This document shows positions 840 to 32,000 of a stretch of 32,000 bases of DNA, piece by piece. Origin of the DNA: Microcystis aeruginosa NIES-2549. Lineage in GTDB: Bacteria > Cyanobacteriota > Cyanobacteriia > Cyanobacteriales > Microcystaceae. The stretch's first letter is position 1; each line of letters starts with the position of its first letter. The DNA lies in assembly GCF_000981785.2 (NCBI RefSeq), contig NZ_CP011304.1, positions 540,001 through 572,000 of the forward strand, given 5' to 3'. The notes under the pieces are model-generated. The model ran no database searches and had not been told where the DNA came from. It worked only from the letters and a program-made list of their open reading frames with translations. Made by a program: the position numbers and the translations under genes.

Positions 840-3755
840 ATGAAATATTTAGAAGAATGGCGTGGTAGCGGGGTGGACGCGGAGTTAATTGATCTCAATG
901 TCACTGGTTTAGCGGGGTTATCTCCCAGTGAATACCTACTCTACTCCCAAGAATTACCGCGACGCAATGATGGCAGGGTTAGGGATAGTATTCTCAAGCG
1001 TTATGAACATACCAGTCAAGGCGGTTGGTGGTGTTCAGGAATTGACTTATTAACGGGTAATTATGACACTTGGGGCTGTTTTAAGCCCGATTTTCCCCGT
1101 TTAAGCTTCGATAAGGCTAAACCGATTAAGTACGAACATCCTCCCCAAACCCCTACGGGAGTCTTTGCTTTGCGGGTTCCCCTGAAAATTTGGCAAAGGA
1201 TAGCCCAGTCTATCAATGTTAATATTTTACCTGAAGAAGTGGATAATAAGCAAGAGGATCTCGGTTTTTGGTCGTGGGTAATTAAACATCCAGAGATACC
1301 TATTTGTCTTACGGAAGGGGCAAAAAAAGCGGGGGCTTTACTAACAGCAGGTTATGTAACAATTGCCTTACCCGGGATTCACAATGGTTATCGTACTCCC
1401 AAGGACGAATTAGGTAGGAGAATCGGCAAATCTCATTTAATTCCGCAGCTAGAAAAATTAGCTAACTCTGGACGAAAGATTTATCTAGTTTTTGATCAAG
1501 AAACTAAACCGAAAACCCAACAAGCGGTTAATTTAGCTTTACGGAGAATGGGTTATCTATTCAGTCAGGCTAACTGTGAGGTAAAGGTAGTTGCTTGGGA
1601 TGCTGCTGACGGTAAAGGGGTGGATGATTTACTAATCAATCGAGGAGAAGATTACTTTCAACAAGTCTATCAAAAAGCTACTTCTTGGGAGATTTGGAAA
1701 GCAACGAATTTAAATAGTTTAACTCTCCCACCTCATCTAGAGTTAAATAGCCGTTACTTGCCAGATATTTCTATCCCTACATCAGCGCAGTTAGTGGCGA
1801 TTCAATCGGCTAAAGGTACGGGTAAAACTGAGTTTTTAGCCAAGATAGTTAAACAAGCTATTGCCAATCAACAAAAAGTTTTAGTTATCGGTCATCGGGT
1901 TAAACTGGTAGAGGAGTTATGTCAACGCTTTGGTTTAAACTATATCAGCAAAATTAGGGATAATCCTGCGGCACAAATTTACGGTTATGGTTTATGTATT
2001 GACTCTCTCCATCCCCAATCACAAGCTAAATTTCAAGCGGAAGATTGGCAAGGCTCTATTATTATTATCGATGAGATCGAACAAGTTCTATGGCATGGTT
2101 TAAATGGGGATACTTGTAAAACTAATCGTGTAGCAATTTTAAAGTCTTTAAAGTCTCTGCTGCAAACTGTGGTCAGCAGTGGGGGAAAAGTCCTAGTTGC
2201 CGATGCTGATTTAAGTGATATTTCCCTAGATTATTTAACTTCTTTAGCTGCAATTAAATTAGAAACTTTCTTGATTAGTAACGAGTGGAAACCTAGTTAT
2301 CAGGAAGCTTGGCGAGTTTATAACTACTCTGATAATACTCCTCACCAGCTAATTAAGCATCTAGTAAAACATATTAAAGAGGGAGGAAAACCTTTTGTTT
2401 GTCTATCAGCACAAAAGTTAACCAGTAAATGGGGTACAATTACCCTAGAATCCTATCTCAAAAAACAATTTCCCCACAAGAAAGTTCTGCGAATAGATTC
2501 AGAGTCATTGCAAGATTCTAGTCACGCTGCCTATCAAGCGATTGGCAATTTAAATCAGTTGTTACTTAACTATGATATAGTTCTAGCTAGTCCCGCGATC
2601 GAAACGGGAATTAGTATTGATATTCAGCAGCACTTTTCCTCGGTTTGGTGTATAGCACAGGGAATTCAAACTCCCACTTCTATCGCTCAATTTTTAGGGA
2701 GAATTAGAGAGAATATTCCTCGTTATATTTGGTCAGCAGTGTACGGATTTAATCAGGTGGGTAATGGTTCCACTTCTATCCCCAAACTTCTCACCTCTGG
2801 ACACCGATTAACCGAGGTTAATATTCGCTTACTACACCAATCAGATTTAGAATCTCTAGAGGATTTAGATACAAGTTTTCAAGCGGAATCTCTCCTCTGC
2901 TGGGCTAAAATGGCCGTGCGAGTCAATGCTTATATGCTTAATTATCGTCAGTCAATTCTAGGGATTTTACAAGCAGAAGGTCATAGAATTAAAGAACGAA
3001 ATCAGGAAGAAGAACTAGACATAACTAATCAGTTAACGGCAGCAATTGAGGAGATTATGGAACATAATTATCGTTCTGAATGCGATGCGATTGCCAACGC
3101 AGCTGAGATAACGGAATCAGAGTGTCGTCTGCTAAAAAAACAGTTAGTTAAGTCAGTAAAAGAAAGGAGAATTATTAGAAAATATGACCTATATAAACGC
3201 TATGGAATCCCCGTCACACCGCAATTAGTGATTAAAGATGACCAAGGATGGTATCAAGAACTACGTCTACATTACTTTTTGACAATCGGGCGACAATTTT
3301 TGTGTGATCGAGATGCTTTAATTGCGCGTAAACTGATAGAATCAGGTCACGGAAGTTTATTTATTCCCGATTTTAATAGCAGTCAATTAGGAGTGATTAT
3401 CGGGACGTTAGAATTGTTGGGAATTCCCGTATTATTAGCTAACCCTGAGAGAGAATTAAATAATCATGATGCCGATTTACAAAAAATGGCGGAAATCGCC
3501 ATTAAAAACCGTAACGAGATTAAAACTATCACCAAGATTAACCTCTCTAATACTTCCCGTCCTCTGACGATTATTCGTAATTTTTTAAACTTGTTAGGTT
3601 ATCAATTAACCAGCAAGGGCAGCCAGAGAATTGCTAAAAAATACCTAAAAGTTTATCAGATTGTTGCACCTTATGATGGGAGAGAACAAGTGTTTCAACA
3701 ATGGTTATTTAGAGACGAAAAATGTGCGGGAAGTTCTGAGATTTGGTATGAATAA
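840..3755 (+). CDS. DUF3854 (Toprim-like) plus P-loop NTPase replication/primase-helicase protein, cyanobacterial plasmid Rep (CyRepA)-like
   Basis: 971-aa ORF. Toprim-like block: ICLTEGAKKAGALLTAGYVTIALPGIHNGYR...IYLVFDQE...GKGVDDLL. Walker A: IQSAKGTGKTE. Walker B: IIIIDEIEQV. This architecture is typical of cyanobacterial plasmid replication proteins. Confidence 0.7.
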   Translation: MKYLEEWRGSGVDAELIDLNVTGLAGLSPSEYLLYSQELPRRNDGRVRDSILKRYEHTSQGGWWCSGIDLLTGNYDTWGCFKPDFPRLSFDKAKPIKYEHPPQTPTGVFALRVPLKIWQRIAQSINVNILPEEVDNKQEDLGFWSWVIKHPEIPICLTEGAKKAGALLTAGYVTIALPGIHNGYRTPKDELGRRIGKSHLIPQLEKLANSGRKIYLVFDQETKPKTQQAVNLALRRMGYLFSQANCEVKVVAWDAADGKGVDDLLINRGEDYFQQVYQKATSWEIWKATNLNSLTLPPHLELNSRYLPDISIPTSAQLVAIQSAKGTGKTEFLAKIVKQAIANQQKVLVIGHRVKLVEELCQRFGLNYISKIRDNPAAQIYGYGLCIDSLHPQSQAKFQAEDWQGSIIIIDEIEQVLWHGLNGDTCKTNRVAILKSLKSLLQTVVSSGGKVLVADADLSDISLDYLTSLAAIKLETFLISNEWKPSYQEAWRVYNYSDNTPHQLIKHLVKHIKEGGKPFVCLSAQKLTSKWGTITLESYLKKQFPHKKVLRIDSESLQDSSHAAYQAIGNLNQLLLNYDIVLASPAIETGISIDIQQHFSSVWCIAQGIQTPTSIAQFLGRIRENIPRYIWSAVYGFNQVGNGSTSIPKLLTSGHRLTEVNIRLLHQSDLESLEDLDTSFQAESLLCWAKMAVRVNAYMLNYRQSILGILQAEGHRIKERNQEEELDITNQLTAAIEEIMEHNYRSECDAIANAAEITESECRLLKKQLVKSVKERRIIRKYDLYKRYGIPVTPQLVIKDDQGWYQELRLHYFLTIGRQFLCDRDALIARKLIESGHGSLFIPDFNSSQLGVIIGTLELLGIPVLLANPERELNNHDADLQKMAEIAIKNRNEIKTITKINLSNTSRPLTIIRNFLNLLGYQLTSKGSQRIAKKYLKVYQIVAPYDGREQVFQQWLFRDEKCAGSSEIWYE

Positions 3756-10920: not shown

Positions 10921-11015
10921 GGGTTGGGGTGTTGGGGTTTTAGTTCAATTTCCCCACTCCGCCACTCCCCCGCTTCCCCGCTTCCCCACTTCCCCACTCC
11001 CCCACTTCCCCACCA
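10921..11015. repeat. G-run block followed by a C-rich degenerate short tandem repeat (CCCCACT/CCCCGCT type, STRR-like)
   Basis: GGGGTTGGGGTGTTGGGG at 10921-10938. Then ccccactccgccactcccccgcttccccgcttccccacttccccactcccccacttccccacc at 10953-11015. The ORF-track entry 10924-11175 is just this repeat translated. Confidence 0.8.
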
Positions 11016-14110: not shown

Positions 14111-14605
14111 CTAAATCAAAAATAATTGGGCTACAGTGACGGCATTCTCTCCTCGAAGCATAGCAATAATCACCGCTAGTAACAAGCAGCCCAGCAGGGT
14201 GAGTGCCAAGATAAACAAAGCAAAAATTTCTCCCGAAGATAGGGGACGATCGGTAGGATCGAGATAGGCGCTACGATTAGCTATGGGTTGATCGCCATCG
14301 GGGATGGTTTGGATGACATTCCAGCGCGAGTAACCTATCTGTAAATCATACAGGGAACGGCGATCGGGATTACTCAGGGTGGCATAAGCTTCGTTAAGAC
14401 GCTGGAATTTAACCGTTGCCACTTCGGGGCTGAGTTCGGTAGTATCGGGGTGGTATCGTTTGCTGAGTTCCCGATAGGCGCGTCGCACTTCGATCACCGA
14501 GGCACTCGGATGTAGTCCTAGAATGGCATAATAAGTATTGGCAAAGCGCGAGTTAGCGGCAATGACTCGCGAGGTAGTTTGGGAATTATCGCGCTCGAAG
14601 GTCAC
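14111..14605 (-). CDS. J-domain (DnaJ-like) protein with C-terminal transmembrane anchor
   Basis: 164 aa. YYAILGLHPSASVIEVRRAYRELSKRYHPDTT contains the HPD motif. Hydrophobic C-terminus: IFALFILALTLLGCLLLAVIIAML. GTG start. Confidence 0.8.
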   Translation of the reverse strand: MTFERDNSQTTSRVIAANSRFANTYYAILGLHPSASVIEVRRAYRELSKRYHPDTTELSPEVATVKFQRLNEAYATLSNPDRRSLYDLQIGYSRWNVIQTIPDGDQPIANRSAYLDPTDRPLSSGEIFALFILALTLLGCLLLAVIIAMLRGENAVTVAQLFLI

Positions 14606-14617
14606 AAGATTTTTTAC

Positions 14618-15040
14618 CGAAAAATTGGGTTTAAAGCCTCGCCCTTTTAGGGCGACTTTATCTGATGTATGATATTAAGAATAGCGGGCCGGGTAAGCAA
14701 CCGCTTAAAAAACCCAGTCATCGCAGGATGAACGCACCGTTCGGCAAAAGCTCACGGCCGAAGCCTTGAAAACTAGAGTTATGGGGTTCTATGGGGGAAT
14801 GCTCCTATAGGTAAAAGCTCTAAGCGTCAAGTACCAGAGAAACCAAGTATTTTAGAGGTTTTGAACTGTATCGTAGGGCATAGGAAAACAGGCTTCTGTA
14901 AGGGAGCGAAAGTCTGAGGAGAGAACCACCTCTGGGTGGGATTTCGCCAGGAATCTGGTTCAAGTGGACTCGTTGAGCCAGAAATTCTCAGCAGTGATGC
15001 TAGAAGAATCCACGTCCGTTTACGGCGTGGGGTATGTCAA
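14618..15040 (+). mobile_element. ORF-less IS200/IS605-type mini-element (PATE-like) with candidate TnpB-type omega-RNA scaffold
   Basis: No ORF of 60 aa or more lies inside. Left hairpin at 14639-14655 (tcgccc-TTTTA-gggcga), with TTAC at 14614-17 about 21 nt 5' of its foot. Right hairpin at 15010-15030 (CCACG-T-CCG TTTA CGGCGTGG, with a bulged T), followed by ggtatgTCAA ending at 15040, exactly 10 nt after the foot. The last about 80 nt are homologous to 22300-22386. Confidence 0.45.
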
Positions 15041-18578: not shown

Positions 18579-21500
18579 TTAGGGTAAGTCCAGATATTCT
18601 TGTTCTGTTAGGGCAAATTCTGGATCAATGATTTTTACTTCATTATAGGTGAGTTGATAGAGTTTGTAAACTAAGTGATCAATCTGCTTTTCTAATTCGC
18701 TTGTGTCAGCAGTAGGATCAGATTTTTTAGCGGCGAGAATTTTGTCAACTAAATTGATAAAAGCTGATTGGTTTTTAGTTTTCTTAATTGGTAAAGACGA
18801 CAATTCATAAATTCTAATCTCAGGAAATGTTATATCTTGCCTGTTATATTTTTTCCTAAAATAGAATGCTATTAACTTTGAGTTAATAATTCCTAAAAGA
18901 TATTTTGTAAGTGACTGATCATGTGGTTTTACTATTTGCAATAGCTGGCTAGTTACAAAATCACCATTAGTGTAACAAGCAATAAGCTTTTCTCCAACAA
19001 TTCGCCTTACCAATATTCTTTCTCCTTCAAAGAGAGAAATATCTCTTGGAGCAGCAAGATTTGAGCCGTATTTGAGCCATCTATTTTTCCAAGAAATCAA
19101 ATATGTGTTGATATCTTTTCCTTCTAAATATGGTCTATATGTGTTATCTACCTTAAAGTCAGCTTCAAATATTTTATTTTGGGCATCTTCTTTTTTCTGT
19201 TTTGGATTTCCCTTACCTGTCTCATAGATTTTTATACCAAATTTTACGATGGCAATCTCTGCTAATATTTGACTGTCACTTTCTATCTTATTTCTTAAAA
19301 GAATATCGTTTTTATTGGCATCAATATTAATAATTTTTAAATCATCTTGCGCCCAGTTATCCTGACTCATGATACACTTAGTAACAAGAGGATAATTGTC
19401 TTCTACACTGGGAACTAAAATTTCAGTTTGATTTGTAGTAGCCGTTTTTTTCTGAATTAATGTGATTACTGGTAAGACTGTAGCATCTTCAAAAACTTTG
19501 GTTTTAGAATAATCAACTATTTTTAATATTTTTAATTTGAGAAGTATTCCCCTAATTAATAAATTTTTCTGGTTGTTTAACCATGTATTTGGCGTGATAT
19601 AGCCAATTAAGTCTTTACTTAATTTTGTAGCCAATTCCCAAAACAAGATATAAGCATCAAATTGATACTCTGCACCTTTATAGGTATTCAAATAATAGTT
19701 AAATTCAGATTTTCCTAATCCCCATTCTCTACCTCCTATATAAGGAGGATTCCCAATCACCACATCAAACCCGACAAAATCCCCGTCATCATTCAACACT
19801 TCAGGAAACTCAAACCGCCATTCTAAAGCATTATCATACAGCCTACCGCTTTCAATATCTGCAATTTCAGCAGTTAGCTTATCAATCTCATTATTTAACT
19901 TAGTTACTTTTTTCTCCCGCGCTTTTTGCTCCGTCTTAGTCTCCTCAAACAATAAACCCTGATTTTCCAGATTATAAAGTTCCCCTTGTAATTGACGTAA
20001 CTTCACCTTCTTAGGATCACTAATTAATAAATTAGCACTAAAACCAGCCTTAATCTGAGCAATCAGCGTTTCCATCTCCCGCTTTTGTTCCTTATTTTCC
20101 GCATTGCGATAAGTCTGTACCGCATTGCGATATTCCTCAATACTAAACTTCTGCTTCTGTAAAACCTGTTTAACATCCACATCCAAAGCAAAGCGACTAA
20201 TCAAAGAATTACCACACTTGATATTAATATCAATATTTGGCAAAGTTTCTAAATTGCCATCCTCTCGATAATAAGCATTCTTTAAAAGCTCAATCCATAA
20301 CCGCAACTGACAAATCGTCACGGAATTAGGGTTAATATCCACCCCAAATAAACACCCTTCGATAATCGTCTGTTTCTCATGAAATAAGGCTTGCTGTACC
20401 CGTTGCTTTTCTTTATTATTCGGATGATAAGCAAATAAACTCCCCTCATCATCATAAACCAATAACTTATCGTTTCGCACCTCTACCCGATAATCTTTTA
20501 GCGACTTACCCGAACTATCTAATAAAACCCGTAACTCACTCTTAATCGCGATTATCTCATTCAAAGCTGAAACTAAAAAATGTCCTGAACCCACGGCCGG
20601 ATCGCAAATCTTCAGGCTATTAATAATAGTATTCGCCTCTCTTTTGTCCTCAATTCGTTCATATAAATTATCCAAACTTTGACAATTCCAGCCTTTTACT
20701 TCATTAAACTTCTGCACGATCGCTCTTCGTATCGTTTCCCGACACATATACATGGTAATAAAACTCGGCGTATAAAAAGAACCGTCCTTATAACCATTAA
20801 TCTTTTCAAAAATTAACCCCAACACCGAAGCATTAATTAACTTTTCGCTATCTTCTTGAGGATTTTCTAACTCATCTCGATCGAATTTATAAGCATCCAA
20901 AAACTCAAACAAATAAGCCAACGCATTTAACTCGCCTACTCGCTTATTACCCTGATTATCTTTTAGCACCGTACCTGCAAAAATGGGTAAAGTTCGCTCC
21001 CGCAAATTGCCAATAAAAATCGTTTGGTCTTCCGTCTCCGTTGGTAGAAATAGCGAACTATTTAAATAAGGTACATGAGCAAAAATCGTTTTAACCTTAG
21101 CCTCGCGCTTATTTTTCTCCTTGGCTAACACATCAAAAAACAAACTATCGAGATCACTATAACTGGGAACTTTCGCCAAATTGAGAAAAGCAAAATCTCG
21201 ATCGCCTTGATGATATTTAATTAATTGCGCTTCCAATAGTTTGAGAAATAAAACCCGATTAATCCAATTAATTGATAACCGCAACGCCACATTAAAAAGC
21301 CGTTCTTCATCTGTAGTTCCAAACTCTTCAGTTAATTTTGAAGTCTTATCTAGACTATCCAACCGACTAATCGCATTTTCAATTAGGGAACCATCACAGC
21401 GATCGCCTTCTTTCATTCGTCCGATTAACTTCTTCCCTTTTTCCTTAATTTCCGTCAAACCAATAATATACAAAAGCTCATTATAAAAAGGCTTATTTAA

Positions 21501-22214
21501 AGTATTACTGTCATTAACAAAAGGTAACTTAAGTAAATGTTCTGGTGAAAGAATCTTGTAAATATCAAGCAAATCTAAATTTTCCAGATCTCGCAGATCA
21601 AAATGAGTAAACTTAATTTGCTCAATAACTTTAGTGATCGCTGGTTCGGCAATTTGTTGATAGAAAAAATCCGTTTTTGTACTACTCAGTCTCCCTGCTT
21701 CAAAATCGCAAAACTGGTTAACTAGAGCCTTATTAGCAAAAAACAACTCCTCAAAAATCTTCGCATCGAAAATAAACCACTCATAAATATTTGTCACGAT
21801 CAAGTGTTTAATCTCAAGATTTTTATCCGTCACCCTTTCGCGGAGAAAATATAAAACTAACTGCTGAAAAGCCTTGGTATTGAGATTATCCAGTCTTGGC
21901 ATTTCTGCATTTATTGTCCGAGTAGGCTTCTTAGTCTCAAAAATGACCCCCACTGGACTTTTAACATCCTGGTTATTATGAATCACCAGATCAATGCGCT
22001 CTTTTGTATTGATAAAATAGCGATCGGTATAATAGGTATTTTTTAAAAAATCTATCAGCAAATTTTTATTAAACTCTTCCGACTTTTTGCTGTCACATTG
22101 CTCCAACAAGCGCGCCAAATTAGCTTGAAAAACCTGAATTGTTTCAGCCTCAGGCTTGATTTTTAAGTACACCCGATTTAAGGCTTGCTTGAGTTCTCGC
22201 TTATTGACGATCAT
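18579..22214 (-). CDS. Type IIG restriction-modification enzyme: N-terminal PD-(D/E)XK nuclease, gamma-class N6-adenine DNA methyltransferase, and C-terminal target-recognition domain (Eco57I/MmeI-like)
   Basis: 1211 aa. Nuclease-like RIDLVIH...VGVIFETKKP (D...ExK). SAM motif I: ICDPAVGSGHFLVSAL. Catalytic motif IV: VVIGNPPYIGG. Long C-terminal TRD-like region. The gene is visibly more AT-rich than its neighbours. Confidence 0.8.
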   Translation of the reverse strand: MIVNKRELKQALNRVYLKIKPEAETIQVFQANLARLLEQCDSKKSEEFNKNLLIDFLKNTYYTDRYFINTKERIDLVIHNNQDVKSPVGVIFETKKPTRTINAEMPRLDNLNTKAFQQLVLYFLRERVTDKNLEIKHLIVTNIYEWFIFDAKIFEELFFANKALVNQFCDFEAGRLSSTKTDFFYQQIAEPAITKVIEQIKFTHFDLRDLENLDLLDIYKILSPEHLLKLPFVNDSNTLNKPFYNELLYIIGLTEIKEKGKKLIGRMKEGDRCDGSLIENAISRLDSLDKTSKLTEEFGTTDEERLFNVALRLSINWINRVLFLKLLEAQLIKYHQGDRDFAFLNLAKVPSYSDLDSLFFDVLAKEKNKREAKVKTIFAHVPYLNSSLFLPTETEDQTIFIGNLRERTLPIFAGTVLKDNQGNKRVGELNALAYLFEFLDAYKFDRDELENPQEDSEKLINASVLGLIFEKINGYKDGSFYTPSFITMYMCRETIRRAIVQKFNEVKGWNCQSLDNLYERIEDKREANTIINSLKICDPAVGSGHFLVSALNEIIAIKSELRVLLDSSGKSLKDYRVEVRNDKLLVYDDEGSLFAYHPNNKEKQRVQQALFHEKQTIIEGCLFGVDINPNSVTICQLRLWIELLKNAYYREDGNLETLPNIDINIKCGNSLISRFALDVDVKQVLQKQKFSIEEYRNAVQTYRNAENKEQKREMETLIAQIKAGFSANLLISDPKKVKLRQLQGELYNLENQGLLFEETKTEQKAREKKVTKLNNEIDKLTAEIADIESGRLYDNALEWRFEFPEVLNDDGDFVGFDVVIGNPPYIGGREWGLGKSEFNYYLNTYKGAEYQFDAYILFWELATKLSKDLIGYITPNTWLNNQKNLLIRGILLKLKILKIVDYSKTKVFEDATVLPVITLIQKKTATTNQTEILVPSVEDNYPLVTKCIMSQDNWAQDDLKIINIDANKNDILLRNKIESDSQILAEIAIVKFGIKIYETGKGNPKQKKEDAQNKIFEADFKVDNTYRPYLEGKDINTYLISWKNRWLKYGSNLAAPRDISLFEGERILVRRIVGEKLIACYTNGDFVTSQLLQIVKPHDQSLTKYLLGIINSKLIAFYFRKKYNRQDITFPEIRIYELSSLPIKKTKNQSAFINLVDKILAAKKSDPTADTSELEKQIDHLVYKLYQLTYNEVKIIDPEFALTEQEYLDLP

Positions 22215-23126: not shown

Positions 23127-23128
23127 TT

Positions 23129-23170
23129 CAGTTATCAGTTATCAGTTATCAGTTATCAGTTATCAGTGAC
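23129..23170. repeat. Heptamer tandem repeat (GTTATCA)x5 in the 5' leader of the DUF1995 gene
   Basis: cagttatcagttatcagttatcagttatcagttatcagtgac begins 3 nt upstream of the ATG at 23126. Confidence 0.9.
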
Positions 23171-23223: not shown

Positions 23224-23379
23224 GTAGGGTTGATTCATAGTAGGGTTGATTCATAGTAGGGTTGATTCATAGTAGGGTTGATTCATAGTAGGGTTGATTC
23301 ATAGTAGGGTTGATTCATAGTAGGGTTGATTCATAGTAGGGTTGATTCATAGTAGGGTTGATTCATGAATCAACCCTAC
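23224..23379. repeat. 16-bp tandem repeat (GTAGGGTTGATTCATA x8, plus a 9th variant) ending in a 28-nt perfect palindrome
   Basis: Eight identical head-to-tail units lie at 23224-23351. The ninth unit runs into gtagggttgattcatgaatcaaccctac (23352-23379), which is perfectly self-complementary. Confidence 0.95.
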
Positions 23380-26435: not shown

Positions 26436-26461
26436 AATTGTTAAGTTGGTTATTAGCTGTA

Positions 26462-26503
26462 CTGATAACTGATAACTGATAACTGATAACTGATAACTGA
26501 TTA
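26462..26503. repeat. Heptamer tandem repeat (CTGATAA)x5 plus a partial unit in the spacer between the psiE-like gene and flv2
   Basis: Five perfect CTGATAA units at 26462-26496. The sixth, degenerate unit ctgatta (26497-26503) contains the stop codon of the 26501-27001 gene. Confidence 0.9.
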
Positions 26504-30729: not shown

Positions 30730-31584
30730 ATGATCATCGAGCTAGAAACCCAAAACCACCAAAATCCTACCCCCATATCTCTCAAAACGGCGATTTTAGT
30801 CATTGGAGGTGCCGAGGATAAAGTCCACGGTAAAGAGATACTGCATACCTTTTGGAATCGCGCTGGGGGTAGCGAAGCAGTGATCGCTATTGTTCCCTCC
30901 GCTTCCAGAGAACCGGTGTTAATCGGCGATCGCTATCAGAAGATTTTCGAGGAAATGGGGGCAAAATACGTCAAAGTTATCGATATTCGTGATCGCGTAC
31001 AGGGAGAAGACCCCCAATTCCAGGCCTACATCGAAGAATGTACAGGTGTATTTATGACTGGAGGCGACCAGCTGCGTTTATGCGGTTTGCTCTCCGATAC
31101 CCCCCTGATGGAAAGAATCAGACAAAGAGTGCAACAGGGAGAACTGACCTTGGCTGGAACTAGCGCCGGGGCTGCCGTTATGGGTCATCACATGATTGCC
31201 GGGGGCAGCAGCGGGGAAGCACCCAATCGGGCCCTAGTGGACATGGCCATGGGATTAGGTCTCATTCCTGAAGTCATTGTCGATCAACATTTCCACAATC
31301 GCAACCGCATGGCTCGGTTAATGAGCGCTATCTCTGGTTATCCCGAACGTTTAGGAATTGGCATCGATGAGGATACCTGCGCTATGTTTGAACGGGATGG
31401 CACGATGACGGTAATCGGCTGCGGTACGGTAACGGTAATTGATGCCAGGGAAATGTCCCACACCAACCACCATCACGTCACCGCCAACGAACCCCTGAGT
31501 CTGCATAATCTGCGGGTGCATATTCTTTCCTACGGTGATAGCTATCATCTCAAAAAACACCAAGTGATCGCTAAATTAGGGTAA
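30730..31584 (+). CDS. cphB: Cyanophycinase (S51 serine peptidase)
   Basis: GGAEDKVHGKEIL...VFMTGGDQLRL...LAGTSAGAAVMGHHMI (catalytic Ser in GTSAG)...DQHFHNRNRMARL. The start is placed at ATG 30730 (284 aa); the ORF track starts at 30601. Confidence 0.85.
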   Translation: MIIELETQNHQNPTPISLKTAILVIGGAEDKVHGKEILHTFWNRAGGSEAVIAIVPSASREPVLIGDRYQKIFEEMGAKYVKVIDIRDRVQGEDPQFQAYIEECTGVFMTGGDQLRLCGLLSDTPLMERIRQRVQQGELTLAGTSAGAAVMGHHMIAGGSSGEAPNRALVDMAMGLGLIPEVIVDQHFHNRNRMARLMSAISGYPERLGIGIDEDTCAMFERDGTMTVIGCGTVTVIDAREMSHTNHHHVTANEPLSLHNLRVHILSYGDSYHLKKHQVIAKLG

Positions 31585-31597
31585 AAAAACTCCTGAA

Positions 31598-31620
31598 AAA
31601 CTGTTCATCGTGAACAGTTT
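31598..31620 (+). terminator. Perfect 10-bp hairpin after cphB (terminator or element boundary structure)
   Basis: aaactgttca tcg tgaacagttt starts 14 nt after the cphB stop. No clear T-tract follows, so its role as a terminator is uncertain. Confidence 0.35.
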
Positions 31621-31906
31621 ACCGATCTCGGAAACCCAGACAATAAACAACGGCTTCTTTGTGCTTCTCAACAGCGAACACCAGCTATATCGTCACTAAC
31701 CCCGCCCTAAAAGGGACGGGGTTTGCCTAAACCAATTTAGGCGACGCAAGTAGAGACTACCGCACCGAGACGCAATCTGGCACAGACCTCCGAATGCTTC
31801 CCTAGTTCGGATTCTCTCTAAGCTTTATTGGTAAAGCGTTGTTAGACAAGACATCTTGATTGTGTTGCGGTAAGGGACTTTAACTTCACTCTTAAGGATT
31901 ATCTCC
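31621..31906 (+). ncRNA. Candidate IscB omega RNA (HEARO-type) / IS200-IS605 left-end region
   Basis: 286 nt of non-coding sequence immediately 5' of an IscB-like ORF. GC-rich bulged hairpin at 31700-31721 (ccccgccc-taaaa-gggacgggg), a perfect 7-bp hairpin at 31725-31742 (gcctaaa-ccaa-tttaggc), and ccgaa...ttcgg at 31790-31810. Position and size fit published IscB omega RNAs. No covariance model was run. Confidence 0.45.
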
Positions 31907-32000
31907 ATGGCAAGAGTTCCTGTTATCTCAAAAGACGGAAAACCGTTGATGCCCACTAAACCCAGTCGGGCCAGGCGGTGGATTAAGGAAGGAAAAGCTA
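31907..32000 (+). CDS. iscB: IscB-like RNA-guided nuclease, first 31 codons only (PLMP/RRXRR N-terminal domain); continues beyond the window
   Basis: Own translation from ATG 31907: MARVPVISKDGKPLMPTKPSRARRWIKEGKA. The GKPLMP motif and the basic R-A-R-R segment match the IscB N-terminus (OgeuIscB, recalled from memory, begins MAVVYVISKSGKPLMPT). It is not in the ORF track because it is open at the window edge. Confidence 0.65.
   Translation, partial: MARVPVISKDGKPLMPTKPSRARRWIKEGKA

Follow-up and report, generated by a model that had tools for sequence, protein, structure and literature searches.

The cphB–cphA junction and its insertion

The last 309 bases of the window (the whole 32,000-nt stretch of DNA analysed here) carry the first part of an insertion that lies between a cyanophycinase gene, cphB, and the site at which the cyanophycin synthetase gene, cphA, begins in related strains. 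The features at this end of the window are the following:

30730..31584, plus strand: cphB (cyanophycinase; Pfam Peptidase_S51, 98 bits), the upstream host gene, co-oriented with the element
31585..31691, plus strand: native cphB–cphA spacer, host DNA, base for base the same in two empty sites (L002 and L003, see below), where it runs into the cphA ATG
31672..31691, plus strand: predicted guide CAGCGAACACCAGCTATATC, the last 16–20 nt of host DNA before the element
31692..31884, plus strand: omega RNA scaffold of HEARO type (Rfam RF02033 match; boundary from occupied versus empty sites; covariation)
31700..31721, plus strand: subterminal hairpin CCCCGCCC-TAAAAG-GGACGGGG (covariation helix 2, compensatory change in 4 of 5 pairs)
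31908..32000, plus strand: first 31 codons of isrB (PLMP domain; Pfam RRXRR), running off the window end

A look-up of the exact CphB protein led to three Microcystis assemblies, each with a Cyanophycin_syn gene adjoining. The gene order in CP012375.1 (locus L001) is cphB, a 365-aa RRXRR ORF and cphA, whereas cphA follows cphB directly in BJCH01000011 (L002) and BJCJ01000003 (L003), which are therefore empty sites. In BLAST the window is 99.6% identical to L001 across its last 5.5 kb, with indels upstream, and 100% identical to the L001 element over the 309 visible bases (31692–32000), indicating a closely related strain with the same insertion. Side-by-side reading of the three loci reveals an insertion of 1372 bp between cphB and cphA, polymorphic among Microcystis strains with about 99% identical flanks. 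Its 5' boundary in this occupied/empty comparison falls on window position 31692, the same base at which the HEARO match starts; it is the transposon 5' terminus on the IsrB strand, that is, the right end as defined by TnpA. The left junction (marked here, as the others, by a slash) reads ...CACCAGCTATATC / GTCACTAACCCC..., the host side ending in CTATATC, and the right junction reads ...CCCATTTTTTCG / ATGAAAATTCTC... (in short form, ...CATTTTTTCG/ATGAAAATT). At the right junction, cphA starts with the ATG (L001 12335), the target (TAM) at cphA is ATGA, i.e., the start codon plus the next base, and a target duplication is absent.

A sequence-only reading of this DNA had proposed an element between cphB and cphA, with cphA just beyond it; both proposals hold, the first by the occupied and empty loci and the second by the cphA ATG, which directly abuts the 3' end of the element in CP012375.1. 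The same reading had the feature start at 31598, right after cphB, and this has to be corrected: the element begins at 31692 and lies immediately 5' of the cphA ATG, 31585–31691 being native spacer. An AT-rich hairpin at 31598–31622 is inside this spacer and outside the element. The last 22 nt of the element, beyond the window at L001 12313–12334, contain a terminator-like stem, GGGTTTCAGACCC, followed by ATTTTTTCG (a T-run), directly before the cphA ATG, an arrangement kept in most copies; this 3'-end stem could have a polar effect on the downstream gene or be part of the end recognised by TnpA.

Omega RNA and predicted guide

The Rfam HEARO model (RF02033) matches 31692–31884 end to end (model positions 1–211 of 211) with the same helices and beginning at the transposon end, at an E-value of 5e-7, although with 40.6 bits against a gathering score of 83. 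The match surfaced only in E-value mode, and a scan of the whole window against Rfam at gathering thresholds reported nothing, so that a HEARO covariance hit, which had been suggested as a check, was obtained in extent and E-value but not in score. Three of the nine clade relatives searched (L009, L040 and L045) also gave HEARO matches, of 36–58 bits and E up to 0.001, which begin at the first base of the element. Given the gathering score, default Rfam annotation misses at least these members, which shows that the HEARO threshold fails on omega RNAs of this cyanobacterial IsrB clade.

The first 280 nt of the element were aligned in 23 copies (from Microcystis, Nostocales, Pleurocapsales and others). 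RNAalifold predicted 45 pairs, 33 of them with compensatory changes; when the outer stem of the HEARO model was added, 35 of 52 pairs were changed on both sides among the 23 relatives, and pairing was found in 96.8% of cells. None of 500 shuffles reached the observed values, and sliding the 3' partners by 1–3 columns lowered pairing to 31–47%. The structure is kept across genera whatever the neighbouring gene is. The sub-threshold HEARO homology is supported by its position, by covariation and by the three matching relatives of nine. The scaffold may extend in 3' direction to about 31907.

Several predictions made from the letters alone were borne out in this region. The claim that 31622–31907 has no ORF stands, the only ORFs there being minus-strand ones of 31 and 43 aa, and the three hairpins described (31700–31721, 31725–31742 and about 31789–31811) are at the expected positions and are all helices of the Rfam HEARO alignment. 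The first of them is stem-loop 1 of the guide-adaptor region of the omega RNA and the presumed TnpA recognition hairpin, and a similar hairpin is found at the opposite end of the element (L001 12289–12318). An OMEGA element, i.e., an omega RNA followed by the gene of an RNA-guided nuclease, had been proposed, and the HEARO match, the covariation and the RRXRR ORF agree with it. So does the origin of the guide in flanking DNA: 32 other copies each have a left flank of their own, and the predicted 20-mer is followed by ATGAAA in the empty sites, a guide match plus ATGA, and by GTCACT in the window. The guide length of 16–20 nt is taken from DtIsrB, the IsrB of Desulfovirgula thermocuniculi, where it is 20 nt (PMC9581776). 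The scaffold before the ATG is about 216 nt here versus 264 nt plus the 20-nt guide in the DtIsrB construct (PMC9581776), and the TAM of that protein is NTGA (PMC9581776), compared with ATGA for the Microcystis element.

The arrangement resembles that of GstIscB from Geobacillus stearothermophilus: there, too, the omega RNA precedes the ORF and has the TnpA-defined right end as its limit, the guide comes from DNA beyond the element, outside transcription is needed, and the TAM TTCAT becomes ATGAA when the nuclease strand is read (Meers et al., bioRxiv 10.1101/2023.03.14.532601). GstIscB differs in having an HNH domain and making double-strand breaks, and cleavage-based retention has been shown for GstIscB and not for IsrB (bioRxiv 10.1101/2023.03.14.532601). 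In the view of Meers et al., omega RNAs of the IscB type rely on transcripts started outside the element (bioRxiv 10.1101/2023.03.14.532601). A promoter scan of the element detected sites no more frequently than in shuffled sequence, and cphB is a likely source of read-through transcription into it.

The nuclease, its transposon family and rival readings

The ATG at 31908 opens MARVPVISKDGKPLMPTKPSRARRWIKEGKA, and these 31 residues match Pfam RRXRR (PF14239) with 36.1 bits (cutoff 25; E 7e-9), in agreement with the PLMP/RRXRR N-terminus that had been read at the window end. The full isrB gene has 365 codons in CP012375.1 (L001 11178–12275) and is identical to the window over the overlap; residues past codon 31 are read from that copy, in a strain 99.6% identical, and the copy in the window could be damaged downstream. 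The best match of this protein among all PDB sequences is DtIsrB (8DMB), with an E-value of 7e-40 over residues 2–361 and about 31% identity, the low identity setting the two proteins apart. DtIsrB, an RNA-guided nickase that nicks the non-target strand (PMC9581776), has the same domain order: PLMP, RuvC, bridge helix, no HNH, and a C-terminal TAM-interacting domain (PMC9581776). The RuvC motifs and bridge helix of the CP012375.1 copy are D62 (in IGIDQG), RRGRRGRR at 102, E164, H236 and D239, and the four RuvC catalytic residues align with those of DtIsrB. Among 24 homologues reaching down to 66% identity, no substitution is seen at D62, E164, H236 or D239 or in the PLMP motif (P13-L14-M15-P16); a further set of 42 again shows the four RuvC residues unchanged, with P13 nearly invariant. 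An AlphaFold2 model of P0004, a 95%-identical orthologue (pLDDT 75.6, pTM 0.73), has 8dmb_P as its top Foldseek match in the PDB (E 1e-28, TM 0.68/0.75), followed by IscBs and then by RuvC resolvases. Alignment and model indicate that the RuvC active site is intact and that the fold is that of IsrB. The only names given to this ORF in public records are ‘RRXRR domain-containing protein’ and ‘hypothetical’, showing that public annotation still gives isrB genes just domain-level names.

A scan of one genome per species yielded 79 loci, nearly all of them cyanobacterial, two short contigs among them carrying an alphaproteobacterial MAG label. When the 1372-bp element was used in BLAST, its 5' end was aligned from position 1–2 in 32 loci, its 3' end to 1364–1372 in 44 loci, and the near-whole element in one piece in 16 loci, distant genera included. 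The termini are fixed as 5'-GT...CG-3', each of 44 copies out of 44 is followed on its right by ATGA (target N/ATGA), there is no target duplication, and the RNA-plus-ORF unit adjoins dozens of unrelated genes in many cyanobacteria. These are the described features of ISC1-1_MA of M. aeruginosa (termini 5'-GT and CG-3', target N|ATGA, no duplication; Kapitonov, Makarova and Koonin 2016, PMC4810608), which in strain NIES-843 of the same host genus has 5'-GTCA...CG-3' termini, an HNH-less Cas9 homologue as sole product and strain-polymorphic insertion, the likeness being one of described features (PMC4810608); the cphA start-codon site is absent from its description (PMC4810608). A Microcystis IsrB gene together with 207 bp upstream and 59 bp downstream has been reported to transpose into cyanophage Mic1 at ATGA (PMC11237433), and the corresponding lengths on either side of the ORF in the element described here are 216 bp and 59 bp.

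ISC1-1_MA and the abundant TnpB element IS605B-1_MA have a common 3' terminus, which points to one Y1 transposase for both (PMC4810608). TnpB elements of the IS605B-1_MA type share with the IsrB element the last ~35 nt (...ACGGGGTTTCAGACCCANTTTTTCG) and the ATGA target, and differ in carrying the TnpB gene in reverse orientation, along with a separate guide RNA at the opposite element end; both types are presumably moved by the same TnpA (PMC4810608). TnpB elements with the last ~35 nt of the IsrB element plus ATGA were seen in metagenome loci L083, L091, L094, L112, L184 and others, with an antisense ORF that starts MxxxAYRFRFYPTPxQENLLRRT at 75–140 nt from ATGA, and these loci fit the published IS605B-1_MA/ISC1-1_MA pairing and a shared transposase. 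No tnpA was found within the window; Microcystis PCC 7806 contains 14–16 tnpA copies, and the genus is rich in IS200/IS605 tnpA (PMC11448079).

We therefore read 31692–32000, with a probability of about 93%, as the first 309 bp of a 1372-bp non-autonomous transposon of the IS200/IS605 superfamily, ISC1 type (ISC1-1_MA-like), which consists of an omega RNA and the HNH-less nickase IsrB. As a clean example of a Microcystis family that is already known, the element adds little new by its identification.

Three other readings have to be weighed against this one. The insertion might be an immobile, decaying or domesticated relic that now serves chiefly to regulate cphA in cis, through its RNA or its terminator-like 3' end, as its position within the cphB–cphA unit on the cphA start codon and the stem and T-run before the ATG would suggest. 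Sister copies also have internal changes, namely an insertion of ~100 nt in the omega RNA region of L008, a deletion of ~50 nt in L010, an insertion of ~120 nt in L011 and a replaced segment within isrB in L015 and L044, which indicates that part of the family is decaying. We nevertheless hold this reading to be very improbable: the ORF is intact with invariant catalytic residues, the insertion is polymorphic between strains with nearly identical flanks, Microcystis copies are 93–97% identical among themselves, a sister copy moved in laboratory culture (PMC11237433), and the RNA keeps its structure across genera whichever gene adjoins it.

An even smaller chance is left to a true IscB element with an HNH plus RuvC double-strand nuclease, as the sequence-only reading had named it. 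The N-terminal 115 residues do align with several solved IscBs (E 1e-10 to 1e-13), NCBIfam guided_IscB gives a partial match of about 110 bits, and HEARO is a family named for HNH-carrying ORFs. Against this, the solved IscBs align with the N-terminal part only (about 115–175 residues), while the alignment with the IsrB 8DMB is end to end in both sequence and fold; the guided_IscB match (NF040563) covers only residues 6–172 with 109.7 bits, under the cutoff of 175; and Pfam finds RRXRR alone in the full 365-aa protein (175 bits), with no HNH match at E up to 10. The protein (CP012375.1 copy) has two cysteines, and only about 70 residues (71 by count) separate E164 (RuvC-II) from H236 (RuvC-III). 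IscB membership is rejected because there is no HNH domain, and by sequence and modelled fold the nuclease is an IsrB, not an IscB; for the CP012375.1 copy the IscB reading is refuted. Of the full-length ORF that had been anticipated, the RRXRR and RuvC motifs were thus found in CP012375.1 and the HNH motif was not.

Least credible of all is a host small RNA or cyanophycin operon leader followed by a coincidental ORF start, a reading that might draw on the intergenic location, flanked by two metabolic genes, and on a number of stable hairpins (MFE z-score of the structured region, −2.7) and that is ruled out by the empty sites, in which the whole 1372 bp are missing from otherwise identical loci, the same RNA-plus-ORF unit being present beside so many unrelated genes.

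Proposed mechanism and insertion at start codons

For the IS200/IS605-type transposon favoured here, a mechanism can be proposed by analogy with its relatives. A Y1 (HUH) TnpA encoded elsewhere in the genome would move the element as single-stranded DNA, as expected from the family, with ATGA (TCAT on the other strand) abutting the left end in TnpA terms and the omega RNA at the right end. Transcription from cphB or the spacer would produce an RNA in which 16–20 nt of host sequence at the 5' end (CAGCGAACACCAGCTATATC) are fused to the scaffold. IsrB with this RNA might then recognise the empty allele, where the CAGCGAACACCAGCTATATC 20-mer is followed by the ATGA TAM, and nick the non-target strand as DtIsrB does, and repair from the element-bearing copy could restore or spread the insertion, as with TnpB and IscB, for which retention or homing of this kind has been demonstrated, unlike for IsrB. 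The occupied site would be immune, since the guide match there precedes GTCA and not ATGA. The occupied and empty cphB–cphA junctions, in strains about 99% identical, are a natural allele pair for tests of IsrB retention, and the same pair can be used to test the effect of the insertion on the downstream gene.

The position on the cphA start codon is not peculiar to this locus. In 31 of the 44 copies of the genome set, an ORF of 100 codons or more begins with the ATG at the flank, versus 15% of all ATGA sites in the same loci. Pfam domains were found in 7 of 10 such ORFs, and in five of those seven (Phos_pyr_kin, Response_reg, GalKase_gal_bdg, TP_methylase and MFS_2) the profile starts within 2–26 residues of the ATG. 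The reconstructed pre-insertion sites have an in-frame stop at most 40 codons upstream in 23 of 24 cases, most of them without an alternative start. After metagenome loci found via the 3' end of the element had been added, unique sites abutting a long ORF were counted across L001–L186:

IsrB elements: 39 of 58 unique sites (67%)
TnpB elements with the same end and target: 11 of 25 sites (44%)
Chance matches to the pattern: 2 of 21 sites (10%)
Expectation if only non-genic ATGA sites are tolerated: about 29%

The IsrB insertions counted (39/58) are thus directly before a genuine start codon (ATG then A) and co-oriented with the gene. Their proportion differs from the 29% expectation with p = 1e-9, while its difference from the 44% of the TnpB elements is suggestive only (Fisher p = 0.055), which implies that part of the bias is common to the ATGA-targeting family or due to selection against disruptive insertions. 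The start-codon bias is real and only partly specific to IsrB, and it fits both a tolerance of non-disruptive sites and a need for host transcription. No mention of start-codon placement of the IsrB family was found in the cited literature on these elements.

That insertion at start codons is a strategy of the ATGA-targeting IsrB family, beyond mere survivorship, is a tentative idea that we regard as rather unlikely. If it were true, the position in a 5' leader or operon junction would let the host promoter supply guide transcription while the host gene is still read through, cyanophycin synthetase expression at this locus would depend on passage through the element, and occupied and empty cphB–cphA alleles could differ in nitrogen-storage physiology.

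When the window was searched for other element ends, only 14618–14665 (minus strand) came up, short and diverged, where ataaagtcgccctaaaagggcgaggctttaaacccaatttttcg resembles the 3' terminus of the IsrB/TnpB elements (83% over 30 nt, E 0.01). The next four bases are GTAA, not ATGA; the sequence lies 12 nt upstream of the GTG start of a DnaJ-domain ORF (14111–14605) and is possibly a solo end or a PATE-like relic; the hairpin motif occurs twice in the window versus 0.08 expected. The window also has perfect short tandem arrays in intergenic DNA at 23224–23366, 23128–23167, 26461–26501 and 10950–11013, the units being the 16-mer GTAGGGTTGATTCATA (x 8.9), the heptamers TCAGTTA (x 5.7) and ACTGATA (x 5.9), and CCCCACTC (x 7.8), and offset BLAST matches suggest that strains vary in how many copies of the 16-mer they have. 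A 1211-aa fused restriction-modification protein of Eco57I/MmeI/TaqI_C type with DUF7149 and DUF7814 is encoded at 18579–22214 (minus strand), and a 971-aa protein with DUF3854 and ResIII domains at 840–3755 (plus strand); both may be products of defence or mobile-element genes, and neither is related to the IsrB element.
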